This document shows positions 6,883-32,390 of a stretch of DNA of 64,000 bases, piece by piece. The notes beneath the pieces are model-generated. The model had not been told where the DNA came from. It did not search any database and was given only the letters and a program-made list of their open reading frames with translations. A program made the translations under genes and the position numbers. This DNA is from a phage. Position 1 is the first letter of the stretch, and each line of letters opens with the position of its first letter. The stretch is taken from sequence record PX880103.1. One strand, written 5' to 3'.

Positions 6883-6907
6883 TTTGTTTTCCTCATTTGT
6901 TTGGTAG

Positions 6908-7219: not shown

Positions 7220-7283
7220 ATTTACCTCACATAATTTTCTTCAAGCCAATTAATAATATCCCAAGTTTCATGGTGCAAAGCCA

Positions 7284-8484
<1,201 letters not shown>

Positions 8485-8488
<4 letters not shown>

Positions 8489-9011: not shown

Positions 9012-9361
9012 TTAGAAAGGTCCTGGATGTCTTCTGCGAACTTGTTGAAGGAGTTGTTGATTTGTTTTTCAACCAATCCTGGCTTATGAGCCACCACATC
9101 CGCCTTCTTTGCGTCTTTGCGCAGTTTTTCATTTTCACGCTCAATAGCAGCAATTGCCTCACGATTTTTATTATTCATCGCATCAATATAATTATACTGA
9201 ATTCGTAAATTATTTAATGCTAAAGCGTTTTCATTGGCTGTTTTTGTAATTTCAGTAACTGATGTTTCTAATCTTTCTACCTTATGTTTTAAAATAATAG
9301 ATGTTCCGCCAAATGCTATTACGAGTAATAGCAAACCTGCTGTTGTATTACTTAATTGCAT
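9008..9361 (-). CDS. membrane-anchored coiled-coil protein
   Basis: 117 aa; N-terminal hydrophobic helix AGLLLLVIAFGG then charged helical region. Confidence 0.55.
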   Translation of the reverse strand: MQLSNTTAGLLLLVIAFGGTSIILKHKVERLETSVTEITKTANENALALNNLRIQYNYIDAMNNKNREAIAAIERENEKLRKDAKKADVVAHKPGLVEKQINNSFNKFAEDIQDLSK

Positions 9362-9855
9362 AAAGTTTTAATAACCTCTACAATATCGTCTTGAGAAAGA
9401 CCGTTAATTAAAATATGATGTTCAGCTGGAGATTTAGAAATTTTAAAGCATGCCTCAACATCTTCTGCCATATCCGATGCACTACGATTTGGATTACTAA
9501 TTCCAAGACGATGCTTTCCAGTCAAAGGATTAACGATGATATAGCATTTACAGCTATTGATATGAACATTAGGTTGAGTCTGATTAATGAACACTTCACA
9601 ATCATACTTAGCGAGTTGATTTTCTAAAAAGACTTTCATCTCTTCAACCGCATCAGGAAGCATATCACGGGCTTGCTCAAGACGACGATTTCGATATTCT
9701 TTAATGGTCGTTTTCCGCTTGACTTGCTTAGCTAAATCTTTCTTAAGATCGGTGATATATCCAACTCGACGATTTCCTTTAAATACAGAAATCCCATCTG
9801 TGGTATCACCATATGCTTCAACGACCATTTCAGTAGTAATAAGTTGTAAATCCAT
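9352..9855 (-). CDS. alc: Alc, inhibitor of host transcription on cytosine-containing DNA
   Basis: 167 aa from MDLQLITTEMVVEAYGD; length and position (pseT side of rnlA) match T4 Alc as recalled. Confidence 0.8.
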   Translation of the reverse strand: MDLQLITTEMVVEAYGDTTDGISVFKGNRRVGYITDLKKDLAKQVKRKTTIKEYRNRRLEQARDMLPDAVEEMKVFLENQLAKYDCEVFINQTQPNVHINSCKCYIIVNPLTGKHRLGISNPNRSASDMAEDVEACFKISKSPAEHHILINGLSQDDIVEVIKTLCN

Positions 9856-9919
9856 CATAAAGTCCTCATGTTATGTCAGTAAGACTACTATAACATAACA
9901 CGAGGGACTTGTAAACAGC

Positions 9920-11507
<1,588 letters not shown>

Positions 11508-11533
11508 AATAAATGGGCCTTGCGGCCCACTCC

Positions 11534-12712
11534 TTAAAAGTATTTTTTAAAACTCATCATAACTTTATCATCAACGTCATTATCAATCTGTGCTACAAGA
11601 TAAGATGACAGTTCTACTTCTTGCGGCGCGGATTGAACATTATCAGAATTAAGATATTCACGAATCCAAGGATATGGATGTTTAACCGGAGCATCGGTAA
11701 TTGGGCATGGAAGACCACACTGTTTCATACGAGATACAGTTAAGTAATCAATAAAGCTCCACATGCTATTTGTATTTAATCCAGGAACATCGCCATCTTT
11801 AAATAAATGAACTGCCCAATCTTTTTCTTGGCGGTTAACTTCCATGAAAATATCAACTGCTTCTTGTTCACACTCTTGAGCAATTTTAACCCATTCATCG
11901 CCATCAGTGCCAAGTTGAAGTTGACGAATAATATATTGAGTGCCTTTAAGGTGAAGCTGCTCATCACGTGCAATGAACTTCATAATCTTGGCATTACCTT
12001 CCATGATTTCCATATTCTTATGGAAGTTAAAAGTGCATGCGAAAGATACATAAAAACGAATAGCTTCTAAGGCATTAATAACGTGCAAACAGAGGTAAAG
12101 AGATTTCATTAAAGCACGTTTAGCTTCGACTTCATGTTTAATAGCTCGGTTTAAACGAAAGTCGGCATCAGGAGATTCTTTAGCTAGTTCTACAAATTCT
12201 TTAGCATTTTCCCATTCACGGGTTTTAATCAGAACATCATCATAATAGCGACCGATAGATTCAGCACGTTTCATAATAGCTTCATCTAATACAATCTCAT
12301 CAAATACCTTCGATGGATCAGTATAAAGATTTCGCATGATATGTGTATATGAACGACTGTGAATAGTTTCACTAAAAGTCCATGTAGCAACCCATGTATC
12401 AAGGCTTGGGTCTGAAATTAATGACATAAGTACAGCAGACGGCGCACGACCCTGAATGCTATCCAAAAGTGATTGATACTTCAAATTGTTAGTAAAAATA
12501 TTTTGCTGATACTGAGGAAGCTTATTAAACTGCGCAGCATCCATCATTAAGTTTACTTCTTCAGGCCGCCAGAAAAATGACAATTGCTTTTCGGTCAAAT
12601 CTTCAAAAACTTTATGGCGTTGAATATCATAACGCGCAATACCAAGACCTGAACCAAAAAACATGGGTTCTTTTAAAACATCAACTGGATTTGTATTAAA
12701 AACTGTGCTCAT
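11534..12712 (-). CDS. nrdB: ribonucleotide reductase small subunit, uninterrupted (no intron)
   Basis: 392-aa continuous ORF with class Ia R2 features; T4 nrdB carries a group I intron, none here. Confidence 0.92.
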   Translation of the reverse strand: MSTVFNTNPVDVLKEPMFFGSGLGIARYDIQRHKVFEDLTEKQLSFFWRPEEVNLMMDAAQFNKLPQYQQNIFTNNLKYQSLLDSIQGRAPSAVLMSLISDPSLDTWVATWTFSETIHSRSYTHIMRNLYTDPSKVFDEIVLDEAIMKRAESIGRYYDDVLIKTREWENAKEFVELAKESPDADFRLNRAIKHEVEAKRALMKSLYLCLHVINALEAIRFYVSFACTFNFHKNMEIMEGNAKIMKFIARDEQLHLKGTQYIIRQLQLGTDGDEWVKIAQECEQEAVDIFMEVNRQEKDWAVHLFKDGDVPGLNTNSMWSFIDYLTVSRMKQCGLPCPITDAPVKHPYPWIREYLNSDNVQSAPQEVELSSYLVAQIDNDVDDKVMMSFKKYF

Positions 12713-12763
12713 AAATTTTCCGCTTAGTTAATAGTTGGTGACTCGTCCATGAGTCAAATTATA

Positions 12764-15028
12764 TCATAATTTACAGGATGAACAATCTTCAGCTTTTGGA
12801 GTTTCTATTTCATAATCATCAGTACCAGAACCATCGCGGGTATTATGGTAATAGAAATTTTTTCCGCCAAAATACCAGAAATACAAAAGGTCATCAATCA
12901 TTATTGACATTGGAACCTTTCCTTTTGGAAAAATCTGCGGGTCATAGTATGTATTTGCTGAAGCTGATTGACATACCCATTTCAGCATAATAGCTACCTG
13001 CGTAAGATAAGGTTTATTACCTTTCTTAGCTAATTTCCACGTATAATCATAAAGGTCTATGTTATGCTCAATATTGGGCACGACTTGATTAAAGGAACCC
13101 TCTTTTGATTCTTTAACAGAGACTGGTCCACGTGGAGGCTCGATACCATTTGTACTGTTAGAAACTTGGGAAGATGACTCACACGGCATAAGTGCTGATA
13201 ATGTGCTATTACGGATGCCAAAAAGCTTAAGGTCTTCCCGCAGCGACGACCAGTCACAAACGTATTTTGGAGCTGCAATTTGGTCAATCTTTTTATTGTA
13301 CCAGTCGATAGGTAATTCGCCTCGAGACCAACGAGTGTCTGAATAATATTCGCAAGGTCCTTTTTCTTTGGCGAGCTTAATGGATGCTTTAATGAGTCCA
13401 TACTGTAATCTCTCAAATAGTTCATGTGTTAAATCGTTAGCATCTTCATAAGAAGCAAAGTTACTTGCCAGCCAAGCTGCATAGTTAGTAACACCTACAC
13501 CGAGGTTACGACGCTTTTTAGCTTTTTCTGCTTCAGGAACTGGATATCCTTGGTAATCCAAAAGATTATCAAGAGCACGAACTTGAACTTCTGCCAATTC
13601 ATTAATTTTATCTTGGTCTTGCCAATCGAAGTTATCCAACACAAATGCAGATAACGTGCACAAGCCAATTTCAGCATCAGGACTATTCACATCATTTGTT
13701 GGAATAGCAATTTCACAGCACAAGTTACTCTGACGGATAGGTGCCTTTTCACGAATAAACGGAGTATAGTTATTCGTATTATCAATGAACTGTACATAAA
13801 TCCTTGCTGTTCCTGAACGTTCAGTCATGAGCAATTCAAATAGTTCACGGGCTTTAATACGCTTTTTACGAATATTAGGGTCTTTTTCTGCTGCTTCGTA
13901 TAATTCACGGAAACGGTCTTGGTCTTTAAAATAAGAATAATAAAGCTCGCCACCCATTTCATGCGGACTGAATAAAGTAATGTAATCGTTCTTTCCAAAA
14001 CGTTCCATCATTAGGTCATTCAGTTGAACGCCATAATCCATATGACGAATACGGTTTTCTTCTACGCCTTTGTTATTTTTCAAAACGAGAAGATTTTCAA
14101 CTTCCAAATGCCAAATAGGATAATAAGCAGTAGCAGCGCCGCCACGAATTCCACCCTGTGAACATGATTTAACTGCAGTCTGAAAATGTTTCCAAAAAGG
14201 AATAACACCAGTATGGCGTACTTCACCCGTGCCAATCTTAGAACCTTCGGCACGAATCATACCAACGTTAATACCAATTCCAGCGCGTTTAGAGATATAT
14301 TCAACAATTGAAGCAGAAGCCTTATTGATAGACTTCAATGAATCTCCTGCCTCAATAACAACACATGAACTAAACTGTCGAGTCGGAGTACGACAACCAG
14401 CCATAATAGGAGTTGGCAGTGAAATTTGTCGAGTAGATACCGCTTCATAAAAACGGATAACATGTTTTAATCTATCAACAGGTTCATCTTGATGCAATGC
14501 CATTCCAATAGCCATAAATGCAAACTGTGGAGTTTCATAAATTTGACCTGTGGTTTTATCTTTAACTAGATATTTTTCTTTTAATTGCATCGCCCCGGAA
14601 TAAGTAAATTCCATATCCCGCTCGTGCTTAATTTTTGATTCTAAAAATGTAATTTCTTCTGCTGAATATTTTGACAATAATTCAGGGTCATATTTACCTT
14701 CATTTACACAGTAAGAAATATGGTCAATAAATGAACGTGGTTCATACTGCCCGTAAACATGCTTACGAAGAGCAAACATTAAACAGCGTGCAGCTACATA
14801 TTGATAATCAGGTTCTTCAACCGAAATAGAATTCGCAGCGGCCTTAATGACAATAGTCTGAATATCGTCAGTTGTCATTCCATCACGGAGATAAGATTTA
14901 ATATTTTCATATAATTCATAAGGATCTACTGATGTTCCTTCAGCTGCCCAAGATAAAACTTTAATAATTTTTTGTGGGTCAAAGCTCTGAGAAACACCAC
15001 TACTTTTGATAACATTAATTAATTGCAT
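12764..15028 (-). CDS. nrdA: ribonucleotide reductase large subunit
   Basis: 754 aa = T4 NrdA length; ATP-cone N-terminus, active-site NLCCEI motif, C-terminal CxxC tail. Confidence 0.95.
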   Translation of the reverse strand: MQLINVIKSSGVSQSFDPQKIIKVLSWAAEGTSVDPYELYENIKSYLRDGMTTDDIQTIVIKAAANSISVEEPDYQYVAARCLMFALRKHVYGQYEPRSFIDHISYCVNEGKYDPELLSKYSAEEITFLESKIKHERDMEFTYSGAMQLKEKYLVKDKTTGQIYETPQFAFMAIGMALHQDEPVDRLKHVIRFYEAVSTRQISLPTPIMAGCRTPTRQFSSCVVIEAGDSLKSINKASASIVEYISKRAGIGINVGMIRAEGSKIGTGEVRHTGVIPFWKHFQTAVKSCSQGGIRGGAATAYYPIWHLEVENLLVLKNNKGVEENRIRHMDYGVQLNDLMMERFGKNDYITLFSPHEMGGELYYSYFKDQDRFRELYEAAEKDPNIRKKRIKARELFELLMTERSGTARIYVQFIDNTNNYTPFIREKAPIRQSNLCCEIAIPTNDVNSPDAEIGLCTLSAFVLDNFDWQDQDKINELAEVQVRALDNLLDYQGYPVPEAEKAKKRRNLGVGVTNYAAWLASNFASYEDANDLTHELFERLQYGLIKASIKLAKEKGPCEYYSDTRWSRGELPIDWYNKKIDQIAAPKYVCDWSSLREDLKLFGIRNSTLSALMPCESSSQVSNSTNGIEPPRGPVSVKESKEGSFNQVVPNIEHNIDLYDYTWKLAKKGNKPYLTQVAIMLKWVCQSASANTYYDPQIFPKGKVPMSIMIDDLLYFWYFGGKNFYYHNTRDGSGTDDYEIETPKAEDCSSCKL

Positions 15029-15345
15029 AAGTCCTCAACTTGAAAATCGTCTTTAAACAATCGGTTAACTATATGAGCTATTATATCACCATGACACGGC
15101 TTTGGTTTACATGTGCATCCTAGCCTCATTCCACGTAAAGGCTCTAAATGTGCTTTAGTTATTTCTCCGGATTTAATTCGACGTATAAAATCTTTTTTGA
15201 ATAATTCAATGGCAGCCTCCCGGCTGCCAGCATCTTTACCGACGTAATTTCCCCAAAATGTACCGCGGTGAATATTAACATCAAAGTCGGATTTGTATTT
15301 ATTCACTACCCGGCATAGACGGCCCGGTTGGTAATAATTCTTCAT
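15019..15345 (-). CDS. hypothetical protein (nrdA.1 position)
   Basis: 108-aa ORF. Confidence 0.55.
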
Positions 15346-15562
15346 ATTGTTTTTCCGTTAAAACAGTAATATCGTAGTAACAGTCAGAAGAAGTTTTAAC
15401 TGTGGAAATTTTATTATCAAAATACTCACGAGTCATTTTATGAGTATAATATTTTTTACCATAAATGATAATAGGCTGTTCTGGTCCTGGAACTTCTAAC
15501 TCGCTTGGGTTAGGAAGTGTAAAAAGAACGGCACCAGAAGTATCTTTAAATCGTAAAATCAT
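15299..15562 (-). CDS. hypothetical protein (nrdA.2 position)
   Basis: 87-aa ORF. Confidence 0.5.
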
Positions 15563-16419
15563 ATTGCCATTTTCCCTTTAATTGCTGGATGCGATTCATA
15601 ATTTTCAAGGATAAAATCTTTCGGTTTCATGTATTCAGTTAACCAGTAAAGCTGTGTTTCGGTGTCACAATTTCCAAACTCTATAGGCCAATCAATTTTA
15701 AGTTCACACAGTTCTTTAGGCTCACGACGTAAAATTTCTTTACATTGCTCAGTATGATTCATATAGATGTGAGTATTACCACCAGAAAATATCAAATCTC
15801 CTGGGATAAGATTACACATCTTAGCCACAATATGCGTCAAGGCAGCATACGAGGCAATGTTGAATGGCAAGCCTAAGAAAACATCTACACTTCTTTGGTA
15901 CCATTGTAAATCAAGATAACCATTACGCACATTAAACTGATAGAACATATGACAGGGCGGTAATGCCATTTGATTGATTTCAGCTGGATTCCATGCTGAA
16001 ACGATTTGACGTCGATCAGTTGGTAATTTTTTAATACGATCAATAGTTTCAACTAATTGATCCACACCACCGAAATCACGCCATTGTTTACCGTATATAG
16101 GACCAAGTTCACCACTATGATATCCTAGGTCTTTAGCCTGGTTTTCATAGTTATCGTCCCAAATAGTTTTACCTTGAATAAGACTACCATGAGTGCGAAG
16201 ACGTAAATCATTAACATTGGTAGAACCGGAAATAAACCATAGAAGCTCAGCAATGCATGCATTCCAAGCGAGCTTCTTAGTTGTTACTGCAGGAAAACCT
16301 TTAGTTAAATCCCAGCGTAATTTAGTACCGAACAAAGCAATTGTTCCTGTGCCTGTTCGGTCATCGGTTTCATAACCATTTTCAAAAATGTCTTTAATTA
16401 AATCTTGGTATTGTTTCAT
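15559..16419 (-). CDS. td: thymidylate synthase, uninterrupted (no intron)
   Basis: 286 aa = T4 Td length; ThyA motifs incl. active-site PPCH; single continuous ORF. Confidence 0.95.
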
Positions 16420-16464
16420 TTAGTACCTTATATAAATTATAATACATTTTATGAAGCTAAATAA

Positions 16465-16812
16465 TCAATACGGTTTAGCATCAAATTTTCTCTCAATTTC
16501 AGGTGTGAAATATAATTCTTTACCACGTTTGGAAAAGCGACCAATAATATGATAATTATTCTCATCAAACGTGATATTACCAATATCCATAGCTTTCAAC
16601 CAAATATCGATATTTCTATCAAGCTTTATGTCAAAATTCCAATACAGAGAACTATTACCGAAAATACTACAAGCGGATTCAGTGAAACAACTGCTATAAA
16701 TCTTGTCTTTAGGAACTACTAATTGATAGACACCTTTAATAAACTGAGGACCCTGCCATTTTGGCTGTTTCACGTCTTTTTCTAATAGAATAGGGTAATA
16801 ATTAAAATTCAT
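16465..16812 (-). CDS. hypothetical protein inserted between frd and td
   Basis: 115-aa ORF with no recognisable motif; occupies an interval that I recall as a direct frd-td overlap in T4. Confidence 0.5.
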   Translation of the reverse strand: MNFNYYPILLEKDVKQPKWQGPQFIKGVYQLVVPKDKIYSSCFTESACSIFGNSSLYWNFDIKLDRNIDIWLKAMDIGNITFDENNYHIIGRFSKRGKELYFTPEIERKFDAKPY

Positions 16813-16831
16813 ATTTCCGCCACGCGTTATT

Positions 16832-17658
<827 letters not shown>

Positions 17659-17668
17659 ATTATTTTCC

Positions 17669-17911
17669 TTAAACAGACTTTTTCACAATTTTCCAATCAG
17701 CTTTAAACTGGTCGACGTCAGAATGGTAAATCCAGAATCCTGCGCTTTCTCCGTCTTCATAAAGAGGACATCCATCGCATTCATCTTCCCATCCCATATC
17801 ACGTAAAAGGTGTTCAGCTTTTTCAACAAGTTCAGAATCTTTACCGATGATATTAAAATACCATTTACCTCTAACTTCTGAATCTTTAATGCTCTGACGC
17901 TGTAATCTCAT
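17669..17911 (-). CDS. hypothetical protein (frd.2 position)
   Basis: 80-aa ORF. Confidence 0.55.
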   Translation of the reverse strand: MRLQRQSIKDSEVRGKWYFNIIGKDSELVEKAEHLLRDMGWEDECDGCPLYEDGESAGFWIYHSDVDQFKADWKIVKKSV

Positions 17912-17924
17912 TTTATTCTCCTCA

Positions 17925-17968
17925 AGTTGATAAGGCTATAGTATCATTACCATAGCCTGTTGTAAACA
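17925..17968 (-). promoter_or_regulatory. sigma70-type early promoter
   Basis: Minus-strand GTTTAC (plus 17962-17967) with TATAGT-like -10. Confidence 0.5.
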
Positions 17969-17969
17969 T

Positions 17970-18197
17970 TTATTTTTGGATTAATCCCATATAAAATTTA
18001 GCATCTTCAGGATACATGCCATCACAATACTCATTGGTCATAAAACTAATAAGGTCTTCAAGAGGACCTTGAACTTCAATTTGAATACTAAAGAATTGGG
18101 TATCTTTAATGTAAGCCATACTCAAAGAAGGATAACGATTGCGGATAACTTCGTAAGTGTATTCAAAATCAACAATATCAATATTAACCTTAGCCAT
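17970..18197 (-). CDS. small acidic protein, paralog A (starts [13 protein letters not shown])
   Basis: Internal ATG preferred over track start; clearly paralogous to 18663..18887. Confidence 0.55.
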
Positions 18198-18219
18198 TTT
18201 ATTTTCCTCATGTAGTTGA

Positions 18220-18258
18220 TAGGGCAATAGTATCACACTACTACCCTTCTGTAAACTA
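18220..18258 (-). promoter_or_regulatory. sigma70-type early promoter
   Basis: Minus-strand GTTTAC (plus 18251-18256) and TAnnnT -10 upstream of paralog A. Confidence 0.5.
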
Positions 18259-18615
18259 CTTTTTGAAAGTTTTTCGCAAAAGTTCAATGATTTCGTCTAC
18301 ATTGTTTTCATCTACAATGCAGTGAATTTTTGTTACGCCAGAAACTAGGTATTCGTCTTCTTCAGAAGTCGGTTCTTTATATTCACGAAAACAATGAAAT
18401 TCGTCTTCACAGACGTTAAAGTAAAAATGCTTTCCATTTGCGCATTCAATGTGTTTTATTACTCTAAATCCATCAACAAAGAAAGCTTCTTTAACTTCAA
18501 ACCATCCGCCATTTTCTTGAATAATTTTAACTATTGCTGAATTAGAACGTGGACGATAATTAATAAATGTATCAATAAGTCTTGGAACAAGTTCATACTT
18601 TTTACCGATATACAT
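18256..18615 (-). CDS. hypothetical protein
   Basis: 119-aa ORF. Confidence 0.5.
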
Positions 18616-18662
18616 TTTCTTTTCCTCATTTTAATAGGGGCTTGATAGCCCCTTGATAATTA

Positions 18663-18887
18663 CTATTCAATAAATCCTGTGTAAAATTCTACATCTTCAG
18701 CATCCATACCGTCGCAGTATTCATTAACCATAAACTGTTTAAGACGATTTAAAGGACCTTCAATAACAACTGAAACATTACAATTAGGATCATTTAGTGC
18801 GCTTATGATACTAAGTTCAGGATAACGATTACGAATAATTTCTTCAATATATTCAAAATCAACAACATCAATATCAATTTTAGCCAT
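18663..18887 (-). CDS. small acidic protein, paralog B (starts [13 protein letters not shown])
   Basis: Internal ATG preferred; shares RNRYP...EGPL...F..NEYCDGM with paralog A. Confidence 0.55.
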
Positions 18888-18917
18888 ATTATTTTCCTCT
18901 TTAATTATCAGCAGTAT

Positions 18918-18960
18918 TGCCGATAGTTGTATAGTACCATAAAGCTTTATGCTTGTAAAC
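18918..18960 (-). promoter_or_regulatory. sigma70-type early promoter
   Basis: Minus-strand GTTTAC (plus 18955-18960) plus -10. Confidence 0.5.
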
Positions 18961-18974
18961 AACTTTGTGAAAAA

Positions 18975-19008
18975 TTTTTAAAATAAAAAGGGGACCTCTA
19001 GGGTCCCC
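18975..19008 (-). terminator. rho-independent terminator downstream of gene 32
   Basis: Hairpin ggggaccctagaggtcccc followed by TTTTTATTTT on the minus strand. Confidence 0.55.
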
Positions 19009-19030
19009 AATTAATTAGTAATATAATCTG

Positions 19031-19939
19031 TTAAAGGTCATTCAAAAGGTCATCCAGGTCCGTGTCATCAGCACTAGATGAACTACCAGAGCTTGAGCTC
19101 ATAAAATCATCTTCAGTTTTTGTATTGAAGTCATCAACATTGAATGCATCCAAATCATCAGCAACTTTATCAGCTTTCTTAGCGGCAGTCGCTGCGGCAC
19201 CACCCATAGCAGCAGTTCCCATAACTTGACTGAACTTAGTGCTCAATTCTTCAAACGATTTGAATTTATCTTTAGAAGTCATTTCAGAAAGGTCAACCAT
19301 TTGTTCGAACAGTTCTTTCTGGAAAGATTCATCATCAATGTTTGGAATCGCAGATTGATTCAGGAATTTAGATTCGTCGTAGTTACTAAAACCAGAAACT
19401 TGTTTAACTTTCAGTACAAAGTTAGCACCTTCCCACGGACAAGTTACATCAACTGGAGTTTCACCCATTTCAACATCAACTGCAATCATTGCATTGATTT
19501 TATCCCAGATTTTCTTACCGAAACGGTATTTAAATACTTTACCTTCATTTTCTGGAGCAGCTGGGTCTTTTACTACAAGAATATTAGCCCAATAAGAAGT
19601 TTTACGTTTAACAAGGCTGTACTCTTTATTGTCAGTGTTGTACAGATCATTTTTACTGATGTATTGACATACTGGGCAAGAATCGTAATCACCGTGGGTA
19701 GATGAACAGTTTTCAATATACCATTTACCATTTTTCTTGAAACCGTGATTTACAAGAATTGCGAATGGTGCTTGTTCATCATTTTTAGACGGAAGAAAAC
19801 GAATTACTGCTTGACCATTACCCGCATTGTCGAGTTTCAGTTTCCACTCGCCTTTATCTTCAGAAGAAAAACCACCTTTGTTTCCAGCCAGTTTAGCCAT
19901 TTGTGCAGCGAGTTCAGCAGTAGATTTACGTTTAAACAT
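19031..19939 (-). CDS. 32: gp32 single-stranded DNA-binding protein
   Basis: 302 aa; [18 protein letters not shown]-terminus, zinc site, acidic Ser/Asp C-terminus as in T4 gp32. Confidence 0.95.
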
Positions 19940-20038
19940 TTTTATTTCCTTTTTAATTTAATTAACAGTTGGTGCTATGACGATGTATGACCTCATAGCT
20001 GGTCAGTGAGGTAATTATAATCTATTTATAATAAGCAA

Positions 20039-20692
20039 TTAATACTTACAAGATTTCACAGTTTCAATGAAAACATTTTTAGCTTTCTGTGAATCAATAT
20101 TTAAAATTTTTCTATAAGCCTTTAACTTTATAGAATAATTATTCCAGACTAAATTATCAGTCTGTTCATCATGTTTATCAATTATATTTAAAAATGAATC
20201 AAGCAAGATAAACGTCTCAAACGAAATTATGTTCGATTGCAGAAGTTTAAAAATATAACTTGACTGAACTTTTGGATTATACTCAAAGATTTCTTTAAAA
20301 GCAGAAACTTCAACTTTTTTACTAAAATAATAAATGTTGCGAATATCTTCTTCAAACTTAAACTTAATTTGCTTTAAGCGTCCGATATATTCACGATAAA
20401 ACACAAGTGCATCAGCGTCAGAGATGTCACCAATCCAAGCATCTTGGTTAGCAACCAAATTGCTTATAAAGATTAAAGCAAGTTCCTTTAATTTATATTT
20501 TTCTGATAACTTCTGGAAAAAATACTTATCCCTTCGCTTTTGATAAGCGGCATCAGACACCCGCATGCACCAATTATACTTAATTACATCATACTTTCCA
20601 TTCATATGTTGTTTTATCATTAAGTATAATTTATAAACTGATTTACCATCAATGTATCTTTCACCACCAGCAGGCATGCGGAGTTTAATCAT
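20039..20692 (-). CDS. 59: gp59 helicase loader
   Basis: 217 aa = T4 gp59 length; position downstream of gene 33. Confidence 0.9.
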   Translation of the reverse strand: MIKLRMPAGGERYIDGKSVYKLYLMIKQHMNGKYDVIKYNWCMRVSDAAYQKRRDKYFFQKLSEKYKLKELALIFISNLVANQDAWIGDISDADALVFYREYIGRLKQIKFKFEEDIRNIYYFSKKVEVSAFKEIFEYNPKVQSSYIFKLLQSNIISFETFILLDSFLNIIDKHDEQTDNLVWNNYSIKLKAYRKILNIDSQKAKNVFIETVKSCKY

Positions 20693-21027
20693 AGCAGAAA
20701 ATCTAATGTATTAGTTTTTTCACAACGAACAACAGAAGGACGTAAAAGATTTTCGTCAATAGCTTCTGACTGAATTTTTTCAATTATACCCGAAGGAATA
20801 AATTTAGCAAATTGAGTTTCAGGAATAGAGTTTTCTTCCAAGAATGCTGTCGTAGCTTCAAGATAACTCATTCCAAACTCTTCTACCATTTTTTCAATAA
20901 TAAATCCATTTTCTTGACGATCAAGAAGCTTTGCTATTTCATCCTTTTCTTTCTTAATTGAAAGTTCTTTTTCTGAAAGACCGGTCTCATCGACCGGACG
21001 AATATCATTTAGAGAAAACTGTGTCAT
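20689..21027 (-). CDS. 33: gp33 late-transcription co-activator
   Basis: 112 aa from MTQFSLNDIRPVD; position between dsbA and 59. Confidence 0.85.
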   Translation of the reverse strand: MTQFSLNDIRPVDETGLSEKELSIKKEKDEIAKLLDRQENGFIIEKMVEEFGMSYLEATTAFLEENSIPETQFAKFIPSGIIEKIQSEAIDENLLRPSVVRCEKTNTLDFLL

Positions 21028-21274
21028 AAAGTTCAACTACCTCTTCAGTTTCAGCTTCAAACACATCACGATTATCTTTATGATACAAAGCTAATAGACG
21101 ATTAAACATCTTACCATCAACGCCAAGTTCATCTTTAGCACGAATTCGAATATCTTTAATCAGTTCATTATAACCGGAAATTTTCAGTTTATGATCAGAT
21201 GCTTCTTTAATAAATTTAGCCAAATCTTCGCCATGGATAGCTTCATCAAATTCAACCATTTCTTTTTTAGCCAT
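21005..21274 (-). CDS. dsbA: DsbA double-stranded DNA-binding protein
   Basis: 89 aa = T4 DsbA length and position. Confidence 0.85.
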   Translation of the reverse strand: MAKKEMVEFDEAIHGEDLAKFIKEASDHKLKISGYNELIKDIRIRAKDELGVDGKMFNRLLALYHKDNRDVFEAETEEVVELYDTVFSK

Positions 21275-21282
21275 TATTCACC

Positions 21283-22200
21283 TCAAAATTCATTAATGCT
21301 ATTAGTTAATTTAGAAAGACCCGCTTTTACAAAATATGAATAAATTTTGCCACGCGGTGGTAATTTATATGAATTATAGTAATTCACAATGTTTGAAGCA
21401 ATATTATCAGGAATATAATCAAAATCAATTAGAACTAAATTTTCTTTATAACGATTATATTCAGATTCTGTGAGAAGCACCTTAGCTTGCTCACGGTCAT
21501 TAGCAATAGCTTCAACGATTGAAGTTTTCATTGAAGGAGTTCGTTCACCTTCAACTCTGGTAAACCAAAAGTCAGATCGTACTTTAACTGAAGCAACGTT
21601 ATCCTTTTTGTCGCCTTTAAGGATTTTAGTCATACAGTCAATTTCAGCAGAACCGCTTTTAATTTTAACCCATTTCTTGTGCATCGGTGACCATTGCTTA
21701 ACATTTGGATATTTGTGAAGTTGAGTAAAGTCACCATCCGACGAAATGATTAAAATCTTGTGTCCTTCTAAAGAGAACTTTTTAACAAGAACAGCAATAT
21801 GGTCATCTGCTTCATACTTATCAATATCCATAACAATGTATGGCATATAAGCTTTCAATTCATCTATAACTTTATGGCTGGATTCAAAATAACCTTCCCA
21901 GTCCCAAGTAGATTCTTCTCGTGCTTTTCCACGGTTTTTCTTATAATAATAAGCAAAATCACGACGCCAATATCCAGATTTCGCGTTATCAATACACAAC
22001 ACGATTTTAGTGTATCCAAGAGTTTTTGCTTTTTTGACATTAAACTTAATTGAGTTCAATATCAAATGACGAACCATTGATAAATTAATTTTTTCTTTAT
22101 CTGGGAAGTTTACCAAAGCAGTTGAAAGCGCAATTTGACTAAAGTCAATAAAGCAAATTCCTTCTTTGTAATCTTCATCCAGCATCATTTCTAAATCCAT
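21283..22200 (-). CDS. rnh: RNase H (5'-3' exonuclease / flap endonuclease)
   Basis: 305 aa from MDLEMMLDEDYKEG; FEN-family acidic residues; T4 Rnh position. Confidence 0.9.
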   Translation of the reverse strand: MDLEMMLDEDYKEGICFIDFSQIALSTALVNFPDKEKINLSMVRHLILNSIKFNVKKAKTLGYTKIVLCIDNAKSGYWRRDFAYYYKKNRGKAREESTWDWEGYFESSHKVIDELKAYMPYIVMDIDKYEADDHIAVLVKKFSLEGHKILIISSDGDFTQLHKYPNVKQWSPMHKKWVKIKSGSAEIDCMTKILKGDKKDNVASVKVRSDFWFTRVEGERTPSMKTSIVEAIANDREQAKVLLTESEYNRYKENLVLIDFDYIPDNIASNIVNYYNSYKLPPRGKIYSYFVKAGLSKLTNSINEF

Positions 22201-22224
22201 ATGAACCTCGTTCAATTAGTGAGA

Positions 22225-22260
22225 TTTCTATTATATACCATCCAAATCTTAAAGTAAACA
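22225..22260 (-). promoter_or_regulatory. sigma70-type early promoter for rnh
   Basis: Minus-strand GTTTAC (plus 22254-22259) and TATAAT-like -10. Confidence 0.45.
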
Positions 22261-22262
22261 AG

Positions 22263-22270
22263 TATAAATA
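22263..22270 (+). promoter_or_regulatory. late promoter TATAAATA for gene 34
   Basis: Exact TATAAATA ~35 nt upstream of the gene 34 ATG. Confidence 0.65.
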
Positions 22271-22304
22271 CTTATTATTGAAAACACAATAGGAGCCCGG
22301 GAGA

Positions 22305-25300
22305 ATGGCCGAGATTAAAAGAAAGTTCAGAGCAGAAGATGGTCTGGACGCAGGTGGTGATAAAATAATCAACGTAGCTTTAGCTGATCGTACCGTAGGA
22401 ACTGACGGTGTTAACGTTGATTACTTAATTCAAGAAAACACAGTTCAACAATATGATCCAACTCGTGGATATTTAAAAGATTTTGTAATCATTTATGATA
22501 ACCGTCTTTGGGCTGCTATAAATGATATTCCAAAACCAGCAGGAGCTTTTAATAGCGGACGCTGGAGAGCATTACGTACCGATGCTAACTGGATTACGGT
22601 TTCATCTGGTTCATATCAATTGAAATCCGGTGAAGCAATTTCGGTTAATACTGCAGCTGGAAATGACATCACGTTTACTTTACCGTCTTCTCCAATTGAT
22701 GGTGATACTATCGTTCTCCAAGATATTGGAGGAAAACCTGGAGTTAACCAAGTTTTAATTGTAGCTTCAGTGCAAAGTATTGTAAACTTTAGAGGTGAAC
22801 AAGTACGTTCAGTACTAATGACTCATCCAAAGTCACAGCTAGTTTTATTTTTTAGTAATCGTCTGTGGCAAATGTATGTTGCTGATTATAGTAGAGAAGC
22901 TATAGTTGTAACACCAGCGAATACCTATCAAGCACAATCCAACGATTTTATCGTACGTAGATTTACTTCCGCTGCACCAATTAATGTTAAACTTCCAAGA
23001 TTTGCTAATCATGGCGATATTATTAATTTCGTCGATTTAGATAAACTAAATCCGCTTTATCATACAATTGTTACTACATACGATGAAACGACTTCAGTAC
23101 AAGAAGTTGGAACTCATTCCATTGAAGGCCGTACAACAATTGACGGTTTCTTGATGTTTGATGATAATGAGAAATTGTGGAGATTGTTTGACGGGGATAG
23201 TAAAGCGCGTTTACGCATTATAACGACTAATTCTAATATTCGTCCAAATGAAGAAGTTATGGTATTTGGTGCGAATAACGGAACAGCTCAGACAATTGAA
23301 CTTCAGCTTCCAACTAATATTTCTGTTGGTGATACTGTTAAAATTTCCATGAATTACATGAGAAAAGGACAAACAGTTAAAATCAAAGCTGCCGGTGAAG
23401 ATAAAATTGCTTCTTCAGTTCAATTGCTGCAATTCCCAAAACGCTCAGAATATCCGCCTGAAGCTGAATGGGTTACAGTCCAAGAATTAGTTTTTAATGG
23501 TGAAACTAATTATGTTCCAGTTTTACAACTTGCTTATATAGAAGATTCTGACGGAAAATACTGGGTTGTACAGCAAAACGTTCCAACTGTAGAAAGAGTT
23601 GATTCTTTAAATGATTCTACCAGAGCAAGATTAGGCGTGATTGCTTTAGCTACACAAGCCCAAGCTAATGTCGATTTAGAAAATTCTCCACAAAAAGAAT
23701 TAGCAATTACTCCAGAAACGTTAGCTAATCGTACTGCTACAGAAACTCGCAGAGGTATTGCAAGAATAGCAACTACTGCTCAAGTGAATCAGAACACCAC
23801 ATTCTCTTTTGCTGATGATATTATCATCACTCCTAAAAAGCTGAATGAAAGAACTGCTACAGAAACTCGTAGAGGTGTCGCAGAAATTGCTACGCAACAG
23901 GAAACTAATGCAGGTACTGATGATACTACAATCATCACTCCTAAAAAGCTTCAAGCTCGTCAGGGTTCTGAATCATTATCTGGTATTGTAACTTTTGTAT
24001 CTACTGCAGGTGCTACTCCAGCTTCTAGCCGTGAATTAAATGGTACGAATGTTTATAATAAAAACACTAATAATTTAGTTGTTTCACCTAAAGCTTTAGA
24101 TCAGTATAAAGCTACTCCAACACAGCAAGGTGCAGTAATTTTAGCAGTTGAAAGTGAAGTAATTGCTGGACAAAGTCAGGAAGGATGGGCAAATGCTGTT
24201 GTAACGCCAGAAACGTTACATAAAAAGACATCAACTGATGGAAGAATTGGTTTAATTGAAATTGCTACGCAAAGTGAAGTTAATACAGGAACTGATTATA
24301 CTCGTGCAGTCACTCCTAAAACTTTAAATGGCCGTAAAGCAACTGAAAGTTTAAGTGGTATAGCTGAAATTGCTACGCAAGTTGAATTCGACGCAGGCGT
24401 CGACGATACTCGTATCTCTACACCATTAAAAATTAAAACTAGATTTAATAGTACTAATCGTACTTCTGTTGTTGCTCTATCTGGATTAGTTGAATCAGGA
24501 ACTCTCTGGGACCATTATACCCTCAATATTCTTGAAGCAAATGAGACACAACGTGGTACACTTCGTGTAGCCACGCAAGTTGAAGCTGCTGCAGGAACAT
24601 TAGATAATGTTTTAATAACTCCTAAAAAGCTTTTAGGTACTAAATCTACCGAATCGCAAGAAGGTGTTATTAAAGTTGCAACTCAGTCTGAAACTGTGAC
24701 TGGAACGTCAGCAAATACTGCTGTATCTCCAAAAAATTTAAAATGGATTGTGCAGAGTGAACCTACTTGGGCAGCTACTACTGCGATAAGAGGTTTTGTT
24801 AAAACTTCATCTGGTTCAATTACATTCGTTGGTAATGATACAGTCGGTTCTACCCAAGATTTAGAACTGTATGAGAAAAATAGCTATGCGGTATCACCAT
24901 ATGAATTAAACCGTGTATTATCAAATTATCTGCCGTTAAAAGCAAAGGCTGTAGATAGTAATTTATTGGATGGTTTAGATTCATCTCAGTTCATTCGTAG
25001 GGATATTGCACAGACGGTTAATGGTTCACTAACCTTAACCCAACAAACGAATCTGAGTGCCCCTCTTGTATCATCTAGTACTGCTACGTTTGGTGGTTCA
25101 GTTTCGGCAAATAGTACATTAACTATTTCTAATACTGGAACGGCAACTCGTTTGATTTTTGAGAAAGGACCTCAAACTGGAACTAACCCAGCACAGACGA
25201 TGACTATCAGAGTTTGGGGAAATCAGTTTGGCGGCGGTTCAGATACAACACGTTCTACTGTATTTGAAGTTGGTGATGAAACATCTAATCACTTTTATTC

Positions 25301-28037: not shown

Positions 28038-31000
28038 ATGGCTACTTTAAAACAAATACAATTTAAAAGAAGCAAAACAGCAGGTGCACGTCCTGCTGCT
28101 TCAGTATTAGCCGAAGGTGAATTGGCTATAAACTTAAAAGATAGAACACTTTTTACTAAAAATGATACAGGTCAAATTATCGACCTTGGCTTCGCTAAAG
28201 GTGGACAAGTCGATGGTGATGTGACTATTAATGGTAAATTAACATTAAATGGTGCGTATGTTCAGACGCTGGCTGGTATTAATACCACGGGTGGTATTAA
28301 TGCTGGAGCCGCTATAAGTGCAACAACTTATTATGCTCGGTCTGGTTCTTATTATGCTCGTGCTCCAGATGCCGATACGAATACACATGTTTGGTTTGAA
28401 AATAGCAATGGTATAGAACGTGGCGTGATTTGGGCTATTCCGAACACTTCAGACCTTGGCCAGGTCAAAATTCGGGCGAAAACCACAGGTGGTGTTTTCG
28501 CCGGCGAGTACAGTTTCCGCTCTGATGGCCGATTTGATGTTCCTGTAGCAGTTAAAATCGGCGGAGCAGCGATGCTAACCAAAGACGGCAACATTACATC
28601 AGGTTCATTGTTTGGTGGTAACCTTAACAACTATTTGACTTCTATTAAAAATGACATTGTTGCTGGTGATAATAAGAAAGTAAGTAAAACCGGTGACACT
28701 ATGTCCGGTAACTTGACTATTAACGCTAACTTAAAAGTCGAAAACTCTAATGGAACGTATGTTGATTTAGGTTCAGAGAACTCTAGTAACTATAGCAGAT
28801 TAACTCTTGCTCGTAAAGTTGGAGATGGCGCTGGTGTAGCAATGCTTAAAGTTACTCCTGAAGGAAACGTGCAATTTGGTTATCAACCTACAGTTGCTAC
28901 TCCATCTCCTACCAAGTATATTCTAATTAAACCTAACGGTCTTGAAGTAGAAGGTGATTTAGTTTTTAAGCAAACTTATCGTGGTATTGAAGAAGCATTT
29001 GATATTACTGATCAGACTATTGACCTTAATAGCCTTATTATTAGAGGATCAGATTTAGGTACTCGTAAGCTGTATAAATGCAGATCATCTGGCGGTGGTT
29101 CTAATATATTGAACAAACCTACATCTGACGGCAACTTTACTCTTGAAGTTCTGTCTTTACGCAAGGTTTCTGATAGCGATTGGTCATGTAAGCAGACCTT
29201 TACTACAAAGAACAATAATGTTGTAGGCGTATATGTTCGCTACGGACAAGGCGGCTCATGGACCGCATGGCAAGAAGTTGTATCTGGTGTTCAGCCAATT
29301 AAATTAGGTGGTACTGGAGCAACTTCTGTAGCTGCTGCCCGTAATAACCTTGGTGTTGGTGAAGGCCAAACTGTAACATTCGGTAATTTAGTTACCAATG
29401 ATTTAACTGCAAACAAACAAGTTAAAATCGGCGGAGTCGGAATAGCTGATGCATTAAGAATTTGGAATGCCGAATACGGTGCTATTTTCCGTCGTTCAGA
29501 AACAGCATTACATATTATCCCGACTCCTAAAGATGCTGGTGAAAATGGTGGAATAAGTAATCTCCGCCCATTAAGTATTGCTCTTAATAATGGTATGGTA
29601 CAAATGCGCCATTCTGTTACGTTAGGCGATGACGGCAGAGGTGGCAATATGATTACCGTAGACAATGATAATAAACTTGTTGCTGTTACTAGTCATAGCC
29701 GCATTTCTCCTAATTACCGTATGCAGTTAGGTCAGGCTGCGTACATTGATGCAGAATGTACTGATGCTGTTCGCCCGGCTGGAGCTGGTTCTTTTGCTTC
29801 ACAGAATAATGAAAACGTCCGTGCTCCGTTCTATATGAATATTGATAGAGCTGATACTGGTACATATGTTCCGATTTTGAAACAACGTTATGTTCAAGGT
29901 AACGGCTGCTATTCATTAGGGACTTTAATTAATAATGGTAATTTCCGAGTTCATTACCATGGAGGCGGAGATAACGGTTCTACAGGTCCACAGACTGCTG
30001 ATTTTGGATGGGAATTTATTAAAAACGGTGATTTTATTTCACCTCGCGATTTAATAGCAGGTAAAGTCAGATTTGATAGAACTGGTAATATTACTGGAGG
30101 TTCAGGAAACTTTGCCAATTTAAATACCACGTTAAACCGTAAAGTTAATGTTGGCGGTTGGGCTGGTAGTTCTGATGGTGGATGGTACAAATTTGCTACG
30201 GTAACAATTCCTCAAGGTACTGGCACAGTAACTTTTAAAATTTCCGGTGGAGCTGGTTTTAATTTTAAAAGCTATAACCAAGCTTCTATTGCTGAGATAG
30301 TTCTTCGCACAGGTAATAATCCTAAAGGCATAAACGCTGTACTATGGAACAGGTCAGACCTGAGTTTTAATCAGATAGCTACTATGAATACATCTGGTGA
30401 TACTTATGATGTATACGTGTTCTGTGACGGTTATACAAATGCATTAGTGGTTGAATATTCTTGTAGTGAAAACTCTTCGGTAACCGTAGTCGGTCTTAAC
30501 GGAGGCATTCAGCCAGTTGTTGATGCATTGCCTGAGGGACATGTTGTAGGTAAAACAGTTCGTCTGTTAAATAATATTGGCGGAACTTTCGCAGCTGGCG
30601 AATCTGACGTTGTTACTCGTGGTGAATACGTTGCTGATAATCAAAAAGGCATGCGTATTAAATCTAACGGTAATAATATCGGTTCTAATGCTGCTATACT
30701 TCGAAATGACGGCGGAAGTTTTTATATTTTAGCTACAGATAAAAATACAGCAGAAAAAGCCGATGCGGCTAATGGTGATTGGAACTCATTGCGTCCTTTT
30801 ACAATAAGCATGACTACCGGTGAAGTATCAATGAATAACGGCATAACTGTTCGTAACTATGCCACATTCTATAATGATATTGTTCTCAAAGATAATGGTT
30901 ATATTCACTTTAATAAGTCTGGCGCTAATCCAAGAAGCATGAGTATATTCCATGCCGGAGATGCCACACGTGGTAACCGTATTGAAATTGCTGATGATTC

Positions 31001-31580
31001 AAGTTATTTGGTTTATTTCCAACGTTTACCGGGCGGCGCTAACCAGTGTACATTTAACTCTGCTGCTCTTTCGGGTATAACACAGACTAACTCTTTTGGT
31101 GTCAATACATCAAACGCACTTGGTGGAAATAGTATAACGTTTGGTGATAATGACACCGGTATTAAGCAAAATGGCGATGGATTATTAGACATATATGCGA
31201 ACAGCGCGCAAGTGTTCCGTTTCCAAAATGGTGATTTGTACTCATACAAAAATATAAATGCTCCAAACGTTTATATTCGTTCTGATATTCGTTTAAAATC
31301 CAACTTCAAACCTATCGAAAATGCACTTGATAAAGTTGAAAAACTTAACGGTGTCATTTACGATAAAGCTGAATACATCGGTGGAGAGGCAATTGAAACT
31401 GAAGCGGGTATTGTGGCTCAAACGTTACAAGACGTTTTACCAGAAGCTGTCCGTGAAACAGAAGACAGCAAGGGTAATAAAATACTCACTGTTTCTTCTC
31501 AAGCCCAGATTGCTCTTCTGGTTGAAGCTGTGAAAACACTTTCTTCTCGCGTAAAAGAACTCGAATCTAAACTTATGTAA
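28038..31580 (+). CDS. 37: gp37 long tail fibre distal subunit with C-terminal intramolecular-chaperone-like domain
   Basis: 1180 aa; conserved N-terminus MATLKQIQFKRSKTAGARP; C-terminal ~110 aa (SDIRLKSNF...coiled coil) resembles auto-processing chaperone domains of T2/S16-type fibres. Confidence 0.92.
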   Translation: MATLKQIQFKRSKTAGARPAASVLAEGELAINLKDRTLFTKNDTGQIIDLGFAKGGQVDGDVTINGKLTLNGAYVQTLAGINTTGGINAGAAISATTYYARSGSYYARAPDADTNTHVWFENSNGIERGVIWAIPNTSDLGQVKIRAKTTGGVFAGEYSFRSDGRFDVPVAVKIGGAAMLTKDGNITSGSLFGGNLNNYLTSIKNDIVAGDNKKVSKTGDTMSGNLTINANLKVENSNGTYVDLGSENSSNYSRLTLARKVGDGAGVAMLKVTPEGNVQFGYQPTVATPSPTKYILIKPNGLEVEGDLVFKQTYRGIEEAFDITDQTIDLNSLIIRGSDLGTRKLYKCRSSGGGSNILNKPTSDGNFTLEVLSLRKVSDSDWSCKQTFTTKNNNVVGVYVRYGQGGSWTAWQEVVSGVQPIKLGGTGATSVAAARNNLGVGEGQTVTFGNLVTNDLTANKQVKIGGVGIADALRIWNAEYGAIFRRSETALHIIPTPKDAGENGGISNLRPLSIALNNGMVQMRHSVTLGDDGRGGNMITVDNDNKLVAVTSHSRISPNYRMQLGQAAYIDAECTDAVRPAGAGSFASQNNENVRAPFYMNIDRADTGTYVPILKQRYVQGNGCYSLGTLINNGNFRVHYHGGGDNGSTGPQTADFGWEFIKNGDFISPRDLIAGKVRFDRTGNITGGSGNFANLNTTLNRKVNVGGWAGSSDGGWYKFATVTIPQGTGTVTFKISGGAGFNFKSYNQASIAEIVLRTGNNPKGINAVLWNRSDLSFNQIATMNTSGDTYDVYVFCDGYTNALVVEYSCSENSSVTVVGLNGGIQPVVDALPEGHVVGKTVRLLNNIGGTFAAGESDVVTRGEYVADNQKGMRIKSNGNNIGSNAAILRNDGGSFYILATDKNTAEKADAANGDWNSLRPFTISMTTGEVSMNNGITVRNYATFYNDIVLKDNGYIHFNKSGANPRSMSIFHAGDATRGNRIEIADDSSYLVYFQRLPGGANQCTFNSAALSGITQTNSFGVNTSNALGGNSITFGDNDTGIKQNGDGLLDIYANSAQVFRFQNGDLYSYKNINAPNVYIRSDIRLKSNFKPIENALDKVEKLNGVIYDKAEYIGGEAIETEAGIVAQTLQDVLPEAVRETEDSKGNKILTVSSQAQIALLVEAVKTLSSRVKELESKLM

Positions 31581-31581
31581 A

Positions 31582-31605
31582 AGAGGGCTTCGGCCCTCTA
31601 AGGAT
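31582..31605 (+). terminator. hairpin (agagggcttcggccctct) after gene 37; weak terminator or RNA stability element
   Basis: GC-rich stem with TTCG loop followed by a T-poor tail. Confidence 0.4.
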
Positions 31606-31610: not shown

Positions 31611-32390
31611 ATGGCAATTGTAGGTGTTCCTGGCTGGATTGGTGAATCTGCCGTGAATGAAACTGGACAACGTTGGATGGATGCTGCGATGAGAGCAGTT
31701 CGTGTTTCAGTTCCTGGTTGGATGAGCTCAATGGCTGGACAATCTAAAGAAATTATTCACACGCTTGGAGCAGACCATAACTTCAATGGTCAATGGTTCC
31801 GAGATAGGTGTTTTGAGGCAGGTAGTACACCTATAGTGTTTAATATTACAGGTGATTTAGTATCATATTCTAAAGATGTTCCTTTATTTTTCATGTATGG
31901 AGATACACCGAATGAATATGTTCAGTTGAATATACACGGCGTAACGATGTATGGACGTGGCGGTAATGGCGGTAGCAATAGTCCTGGCTCAGCTGGAGGT
32001 CATTGTATTCAAAACGATATTGGTGGGAGACTAAGAATTAATAATGGTGGAGCTATTGCAGGCGGCGGTGGCGGCGGTGGCGGCGGTAACAGGGGTAGAC
32101 TATCATTTGGTGGTGGCGGTGGTCGCCCATTCGGTGCTGGCGGGTCTTCCTCTCATATGAGTTCCGGTGCAACTGCTGGCACCATTTCCGCTCCGGGTAA
32201 AGGATCTGTTGGTGAGGGGTCTCTTAGTGCATATACAGGCGGTGCTGGCGGTAACGTTGGTGCTGCTGGAGGAAGATGTAATACTCAAGGTACCGGTACA
32301 GAATATAACGGAGGAGCTGCTGGTTATGCCGTCATAGGGTCCGCTCCAACGTGGATAAATGTTGGAGCAATATATGGTCCAAGAGTATAA
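31611..32390 (+). CDS. 38: gp38 receptor-binding adhesin (T2/S16 type, glycine-rich motifs)
   Basis: 259 aa; conserved N-terminus then poly-Gly blocks ([23 protein letters not shown]) separated by variable segments. Confidence 0.85.

Follow-up and report, generated by a model that had tools for sequence, protein, structure and literature searches.

Does gene 38 in the 64-kb stretch of phage DNA analysed here (the window) encode a tail-fibre assembly chaperone, as it does in T4, where gp38 is not a virion component (PMC6851490), or a receptor-recognising adhesin of the T2/S16 type? According to the first reading, gp38 would serve the folding of gp37 and be absent from the virion, and the receptor would be bound by the tip of gp37. 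What speaks for this is the name of the gene and its place on the map, between genes 37 and t, nothing else, in a window of which the remainder is 94-98% identical to T4 at the nucleotide level nearly throughout. The second reading had been put forward in an earlier note on this DNA, which described gp38 as a T2/S16-type adhesin and expressly not as the T4-type chaperone. Gene 38 directly follows gene 37 and precedes the holin gene t (order 34-35-36-37-38-t-asiA-arn-motA), with a short intergenic element ahead of it:

31611..32390, + strand: gene 38, receptor-recognising long tail fibre adhesin of 259 aa (stop codon included; from the ORF and from Pfam, PDB sequence and PHROG matches)
31582..31604, + strand: intergenic 7-bp stem with UUCG loop (31582-31599), then the AAGGA ribosome-binding site of gene 38 (from the sequence)

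Gene 38 is present in a single copy within the window and extends from an ATG at 31611 to a TAA at 32388-32390 (ORF list and sequence), with the Shine-Dalgarno sequence AAGGA (31600-31604) six bases 5' of it. The UUCG hairpin between genes 37 and 38 has a fold energy of -13.4 kcal/mol, a value that does not set it apart from shuffles of the 56-nt context (z = -1.08), and we make no functional claim for it. In the window, the late-promoter motif TATAAATA occurs no more often than expected (7 copies vs 9.7 expected); no copy lies between genes 37 and 38, and those at 22263 and 27333 are immediately upstream of genes 34 and 36, a distribution from which we only infer that gene 38 is co-transcribed with genes 36-37. 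Glycine accounts for 63 of the 259 residues, 51 of them within the C-terminal 145 and 12 within the first 114, and forms runs of nine (residues 151-159) and five (167-171). Because of the glycine codons, local GC rises to 0.55 over a background of about 0.35-0.40, and three small ORFs that overlap the gene (32103-32288 on the - strand, 32167-32337 on the + strand and 32324-32488 on the - strand) were treated as by-products of these GC-rich codons.

Both Pfam models of adhesin-type gp38 are matched over their full length, namely PF05268 (Phage tail fibre adhesin Gp38; 3.9e-71, 239.8 bits with a cut-off of 25, model positions 1-218 of 218) and PF21721 (Gp38 N-terminal domain, Gp38_N; 2.5e-18, 66.2 bits, model positions 1-40 of 40, residues 1-42 of the protein). 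The protein also matches phrog_2056 ('tail fiber protein; host specificity', 3.7e-108). In a sequence search of the PDB only two entries were matched: 9v85 (8e-77), the GFP-fused receptor-binding domain of gp38 from phage PP01 (PMC12892980), and 6f45_D (1e-51), from the gp38-gp37 complex of phage S16 (Dunne et al. 2018). No NCBIfam model matches gp38 of the window, nor T4 gp38. Alignment with known adhesins, which the earlier note had proposed as a check, runs end to end for gp38 of T2, T6 and S16 as well as of M1 and PP01, and W9, W22 and W37 align with the three tryptophans of S16 (in place of K3 and Ox2 gp38, the other OmpA binders used for comparison were M1, FL08 and AV119).

With T4 gp38, by contrast, it has no more in common than name and map position. 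The 183-aa T4 protein (from NC_000866) is unrelated in sequence (BLASTP E = 0.96) and belongs to phrog_105 ('tail fiber assembly'), which gp38 of the window does not match, and tblastn with T4 gp38 against the whole 64-kb window returned noise only (E > 5). A T4-chaperone identity was rejected on these grounds. All the features defining the T2/S16-type adhesin family that can be examined in silico are present, and the one defining the T4 chaperone family is absent.

The genomic surroundings also argue against a T4-type chaperone. Homology to T4 ends at 28267 (about codon 77 of gene 37) and returns at 32396, six bases past the gene 38 stop, with a single 404-nt island as the T4-like exception inside this gap, which implies that the whole distal-fibre cassette is non-T4. 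Residues 803-1026 of T4 gp37, its receptor-binding tip, have no homologue in gp37 of the window or anywhere in the 64 kb (tblastn), and gp37 of the window has a chaperone of its own. The parts of gene 37 that concern us here are as follows:

28038..31580, + strand: gene 37, distal half-fibre subunit of 1180 aa, predicted to carry the adhesin (ORF; Peptidase_S74 and Gp34_trimer matches)
31077..31280, + strand: predicted mature end of gp37, last ~68 residues (1014-1081), T2-type; putative seat of gp38, judged from the S16 complex
31281..31577, + strand: gp37 intramolecular chaperone, residues 1082-1180, starting from SDIRLK (Peptidase_S74; cleavage after trimerisation predicted)

The Peptidase_S74 match ('chaperone of endosialidase', 3.4e-15) covers gp37 residues 1082-1139, while T4 gp37 has Collar and Phage_fiber domains and no Peptidase_S74. 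Overall, gp37 of the window is 91.8% identical to gp37 of phage FL12, and its residues 1014-1180 (167 aa) are 95.2% identical to T2 gp37 1175-1341. In the processing of T2 gp37, and in endosialidase-type intramolecular chaperones, the C-terminal part is cleaved off after trimerisation. By analogy, the last 99 residues of gp37 would be removed once the trimer has formed, exposing the end to which gp38 binds. In view of the sequence and family data, the foreign cassette, the missing T4 tip and the resident chaperone, it is extremely unlikely that gp38 is a chaperone of the T4 type, and we favour the adhesin.

The assignment as an adhesin extends to the predicted fold. An AlphaFold2 model of gp38 (alignment of 45 homologues, three rows from GenBank loci left out) reached a pLDDT of 86.8 and a pTM of 0.79, and a Foldseek search of the PDB with this model returned 9v85 as best match (E 5e-25, target TM 0.89, rmsd 2.1 A, 65% identity), followed by 6f45_D (E 3e-20); beyond these two, all matches had E > 2. 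The body of the protein (residues 49-114) is modelled as strands at a pLDDT of 93-95. The N-terminal module is modelled at 37-65 only, as is expected because its partner gp37 is absent from the model. The Gly-rich region is confidently modelled, yet by DSSP it is nearly devoid of helix and strand, which is the expectation for polyglycine-II helices; a polyglycine-II sandwich geometry is also what the fold match to 9v85 and 6f45_D suggests.

The earlier note had described a conserved N-terminal attachment region followed by poly-Gly blocks that separate short variable segments, and this was analysed by column entropy in an alignment of 119 gp38 homologues, with invariance called from 45 sequences. 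Over residues 115-259, mean entropy was 0.52 at positions that are glycine in the query and 1.41 elsewhere, and variability peaks at residues 121-129, 160-166, 179-209 and 222-233 (HVS1 to HVS4), each flanked by near-invariant Gly-rich motifs. As this pattern holds throughout the 119 homologues, it is a family-wide property and not a matter of chance. The proposed alternation of glycine blocks and variable segments is thus borne out, but HVS3, with 31 residues, is not short. Nor is the attachment region the most conserved part of the protein: its mean entropy is 1.05 vs 0.79 for residues 46-114, and it occurs as discrete allelic types around the invariant residues W9, G11, S13, W22, M23 and A26. 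The resulting layout of gene 38 is:

31611..31754, + strand: attachment module, residues 1-48, T2 allele, with Trp9, Trp22 and Trp37; would dock on the gp37 trimer (Gp38_N at residues 1-42)
31755..31952, + strand: conserved beta-helix body, residues 49-114, of T6/M1/PP01/FL type, not T2 type (identity and model)
31953..31970, + strand: Gly-rich motif 1, YGRGGN, residues 115-120; G115, R116, G117, G118 and G120 invariant, entropy ~0
31971..31997, + strand: HVS1, residues 121-129, GSNSPGSAG (entropy peak)
31998..32060, + strand: residues 130-150, conserved strands of the beta-helix that separate the two sandwich extensions (low entropy)
32061..32087, + strand: Gly-rich motif 2, nine consecutive Gly, residues 151-159 (G-run)
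32088..32108, + strand: HVS2, residues 160-166, NRGRLSF (entropy peak); short allele typical of the OmpA type-2 / RB49-like group
32109..32144, + strand: Gly-rich motif 3, residues 167-178; G167-G171, R172, P173, G175 and G178 invariant
32145..32237, + strand: HVS3, residues 179-209, the longest putative receptor-contact region (entropy peak)
32238..32273, + strand: Gly-rich motif 4, residues 210-221; conserved Gly columns G211, G213, G214, G217 and G220
32274..32309, + strand: HVS4, residues 222-233 (entropy peak)
32310..32387, + strand: Gly-rich motif 5 and conserved C-terminal strands returning into the beta-helix, residues 234-259 (low entropy; T2-like DNA resumes at 32310)

The attachment module is identical to that of T2 gp38 at 47 of 49 positions and to that of FL12 at all 49; W9 and W22 are invariant among the 45 sequences, and the role of the three tryptophans is known from the S16 structure (PMC6851490). 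The beta-helix body matches FL12, FL20, M1 and EV240 at 64-65 of 65 positions vs 26 of 66 for T2, and residues 130-150 are identical (21/21) to the FL12 group and T6. Motif 2 corresponds to helix 3 of S16, '151-GGGGGGGG-158' (PMC6851490).

These data would be accounted for by the following arrangement. In this T4-like phage (Tequatrovirus), gp38 would be a monomeric adhesin, one capping each long tail fibre, presumably at the tip. Once the 99-residue C-terminal self-chaperone has been cleaved off, the freed end of the gp37 trimer would accept the N-terminal module (residues 1-48), three helices with Trp9, Trp22 and Trp37, as a plug. Residues 49-150 and 234-259 would together form a small beta-helix from which two extensions project, with the Gly-rich motifs packed as a polyglycine-II 'sandwich'. 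The loops joining the polyglycine-II helices would be the four variable segments, and these would form the distal surface that contacts an E. coli outer-membrane protein, most likely OmpA, at its extracellular loops. Such binding would be the first, reversible step of adsorption, and would set the host range.

That specificity resides in gp38 and not in the gp37 tip was a further claim of the earlier note, and homology lends it indirect support: gp37 carries the Peptidase_S74 domain and is without the T4 tip, and among close relatives a swap of gp38 from HVS2 onward switches the receptor. In that experiment, transfer of the EV240 sequence into phage CM8 changed the receptor from Tsx to OmpA (preprint 10.64898/2026.04.02.716166). 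By analogy with these relatives, gp38 would be the seat of receptor specificity in the present phage also.

The four variable segments taken together are closest to those of OmpA-dependent phages: identity is 56/59 to FL18, 53/59 each to FL12 and EV240, 50/59 to FL20 and 53/60 (0.88) to JSE. The corresponding values are 35/64 for T6 (Tsx), 22/67 for M1 (OmpA), 12/67 for T2 (FadL/OmpF) and 10/73 for FL08 and AV119, which use OmpA in the mode termed 'type 1'. Over all homologues, loop identity is bimodal, and gp38 of the window falls within the high mode. Segment by segment, HVS1 is common to T6, M1 and the FL12 group, with another sequence in T2 and in FL08/AV119. HVS2 matches FL12, FL18, FL20 and EV240 at 5-7 of 7 positions vs 0-3 of 12-15 for T6, M1, T2 and FL08. 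HVS3 is identical to that of FL18 and JSE (31/31), with 28/31 for FL12 and 27/31 for EV240, and HVS4 has 10-11 of 12 residues in common with the FL12/FL18/FL20/EV240 group vs 0-2 with T2, M1 and FL08. An ompA deletion mutant is resistant to FL12, FL18 and FL20 (Lutz et al. 2025, PMC12032242), and the receptor of EV240 was determined as OmpA/HepI by RB-TnSeq (preprint 10.64898/2026.04.02.716166).

As its loops are 85-95% identical to those of these four phages, all of them OmpA-dependent by experiment, we consider OmpA the likely receptor. FL12, FL18 and FL20 represent a narrow-host-range 'type 2' that infects only OmpA variants 1, 3 and 4 (PMC12032242), and the loop sequences suggest that the present phage probably recognises OmpA in this mode. 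R172, A189 and A253, which were identified in silico as type-2 contacts with OmpA loop 1 (PMC12032242), are present in gp38 of the window, provided that the paper numbers residues as in the 259-aa proteins.

A few loop substitutions might nevertheless have redirected the adhesin to another primary receptor (Tsx, OmpF, OmpC, FadL or OmpW). Switches by a single residue are known in this family, as the HVS3 substitution Q206L moves RB51/RB68 between OmpF and OmpW (preprint 10.64898/2026.04.02.716166), and the variable segments of the window carry 3 to 9 differences from each of its receptor-typed relatives (for example R163K, S165I and T228N with respect to FL18). Its HVS1 is shared with the Tsx user T6, and for vB_EcoM_SP1, the gp38 of which is 88.8% identical, the K-12 mutants tested gave no identification of the receptor (preprint 10.1101/2022.07.04.498734). 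Against such a redirection stand the bimodal distribution and the contrast between the identity to four independently typed OmpA phages and that to Tsx binders (at most 55%) or FadL/OmpF binders (10-20%). Furthermore, all substitutions relative to FL12 except S165V and K197A correspond to the residue found in OmpA-dependent FL18. We therefore think it quite improbable that the primary receptor is a protein other than OmpA.

A different proposal is that gp38 has two ligands, binding OmpA on rough strains and, on smooth ones, LPS core or certain O antigens. RB49-like phages are OmpA-dependent on K-12 and also use O antigens through gp38 (PMC9569957), the RB49-like phage JSE has the same HVS3 as the window, and RB32 needs OmpA and responds to LPS composition (PMC3157838). 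However, FL12, FL18 and FL20 were scored as plainly OmpA-dependent, with a narrow host range on the ECOR collection (PMC12032242), and the beta-helix body of the window is only ~51% identical to the RB49/JSE type. A second ligand would extend the explanation by OmpA rather than exclude it, and sequence cannot separate the two; we regard it as unlikely.

The combination of loops present in the window is absent from the named phages: an HVS3 of FL18/JSE type with K197, its own HVS2 (NRGRLSF), T228 and a T2-type attachment module occur together. Because single-residue loop changes are known to switch receptors, there is a small chance that this combination recognises other OmpA loop variants, an extra ligand such as O antigen, or a different porin from those of the typed relatives.

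Returning to OmpA as the likely receptor, the closest named relative is gp38 of FL12 (PP400786; OmpA, 'type 2'), which also has 259 aa and is 95.8% identical. The two phages agree in the attachment module, in the beta-helix body (65/65), in the type of gp37 and in the order 36-37-38-t. They differ in gp36 (221 aa in the window vs 229 aa in FL12) and by 11 substitutions in gp38 (S165V, S185A, S193Y, K197A, A212S, N215E, A218S, Q226H, T228A, A245T and I249Q), all within or beside the loop region. In FL18 (Mosigvirus), EV240 (Tequatrovirus) and RB49/JSE (Krischvirus), which are OmpA-dependent and have loop sets near-identical to that of the window, the attachment modules are unlike it (12-34 of 49 identical). 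The JSE body is also different (27/66), and Krischvirus genomes have genes 37 and 38 far apart (preprint 10.64898/2026.04.02.716166; PMC3157838).

PP01 gp38, the best structural match, nearly agrees with the window in its beta-helix body and Gly motifs; its loops differ, and its receptor is OmpC of E. coli O157 (PMC12892980). S16 shares the three-domain plan, the three tryptophans, the Gly motifs and the long poly-Gly helix, but its gp38 is only 43% identical and differs in host, receptor (Salmonella OmpC) and loops. T2 is like the window in the attachment module and in the adjoining gp37 C-terminus (95%), but has other alleles of the beta-helix body and the loops.

These comparisons lead to the origin of the gene. 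A T2-like nucleotide block (31095-31754, 96.1%) extends from the end of gp37 through the gp38 attachment module, and T2-like homology begins again at precisely 32310, with the first codon of Gly-rich motif 5; in between, the body is of T6/M1/PP01/FL type and the loops are of FL18/JSE type. Attachment, body and loop modules occur in differing combinations among database homologues. By its sequence relationships, gene 38 is a recombinant mosaic of three separately inherited modules: the attachment module is of T2 type, the beta-helix of T6/PP01 type and the loops of FL18/RB49 type. Module shuffling of this kind was described by Trojet et al. 2011 (PMC3157838), and the locus adds a further clean case, with junctions at the boundary of the attachment module and at the last Gly-rich motif. 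PP01 gp38 functions on T2 gp37 only if provided with a T2 N-terminus (PMC12892980), a result with which the window agrees, its attachment module and its gp37 end both being of T2 type. EV240 diverges from the window at both sites, the N-terminus of gp38 (34/49) and the end of gp37 (only 43% identical); the sample is small, at four phages.

Taken as a whole, the explanation by a fibre-capping gp38 adhesin with OmpA as its most likely receptor and a three-module mosaic origin is, in our judgement, very likely correct. It describes an already known kind of system, as gp38 is an ordinary member of the thoroughly studied T2-type adhesin family, which has two solved crystal structures, a genetic literature going back decades and, recently, receptor typing on a large scale. 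The locus advances no open question, and the result matters chiefly for annotation: the label of gene 38 should read 'long tail fibre adhesin / receptor-recognising protein gp38' instead of 'tail fibre assembly chaperone', and the annotation of gp37 should carry the C-terminal intramolecular chaperone. What is added is limited to the OmpA prediction, the exact coordinates of motifs and loops, and the recombination junctions. The prediction of 'type 2' OmpA recognition is testable, and aids the choice of phages for host-range work or cocktails.

An identical gp38 (P0001) is already found in public assemblies, on metagenome scaffolds of 164-165 kb. In the fibre locus these scaffolds and the window are 96.5% identical, but on the scaffolds gp36 has 229 aa and gp37 has 1181 aa.

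Over the window, nucleotide identity to T4 is 94-98%, with the exception of the distal part of gene 37 together with gene 38, and the T4 counterparts of the compared sequence are T4 126571..168903 and 1..23555. The match to T4 breaks off at position 28267 and picks up again at 32396, and what lies between is a precise replacement relative to T4, in which the only T4-like island is one of 404 nt (29721-30124).

28268-32395, non-T4 stretch comprising distal gene 37 and gene 38

The gp38 protein encoded on this replacement recurs unchanged in three metagenome-assembled T-even genomes:

1727-5970, loci with identical gp38: L006 and L007 (ENA ERZ28630360, ERZ28630732) and L008 (Logan ERR10900839)

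These three loci encode a gp36 of 229 aa, resembling that of Escherichia phage FL12, and a gp37 of 1181 aa, whereas the gp36 of the window is T4-like (221 aa) and its gp37 has 1180 aa. As gp36 and gp37 differ in this way, one adhesin allele travels on slightly different fibre backgrounds. Among the gp38 homologues, one adhesin cluster of 155 member sequences (P0018) is listed by NCBI as "receptor-recognizing protein [Bacillus cereus]", a label that almost certainly goes back to coliphage sequence contaminating a bacterial assembly, or to mislabelling there.

A hairpin with a UUCG loop is located after the stop codon of gene 37 and before the ribosome-binding site of gene 38; within a 56-nt context, its stability showed no significant gain over shuffled sequence.

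31582-31599, 7-bp stem with UUCG loop (AGAGGGC-UUCG-GCCCUCU), -13.4 kcal/mol

Several mobile elements of T4 are missing from the window, namely the nrdB intron with I-TevIII, mobE, the td intron with I-TevI, segG and segF, as judged from gaps in T4 coordinates in a blastn map of the window against T4.

12034-12039, 12712-12768, 15867-15872, 20002-20038 and 56372-56408, sites linked to the missing elements

Four small ORFs (86-125 aa) lie in stretches that do not align at the nucleotide level with T4 DNA from the equivalent place, and none of them has a Pfam match; they are probably lineage-specific early genes.

8186-8488, (-), small ORF
16465-16812, (-), small ORF
45726-46103, (-), small ORF
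49907-50167, (-), small ORF

Where T4 has its dam methyltransferase gene (T4 16846-17625), the window has a different ORF, and no dam homologue was seen at that position. The ORF has the appearance of an insertion or replacement of the homing-endonuclease type.

56891-57541, (-), 216-aa ORF; NUMOD3 motif at 8e-07, HNH match weak at 0.0019 and below the cut-off

A further difference concerns the large subunit of topoisomerase II, which is encoded in one piece where T4 has the split genes 39 and 60.

43573-45393, (-), single 606-aa ORF with GyrB, HATPase, Toprim and TOPRIM_C domains

The T4 sequence 2793-3911, which is without counterpart in the window, contains T4's gene 60 translational-bypass region, 60.1 and mobA.
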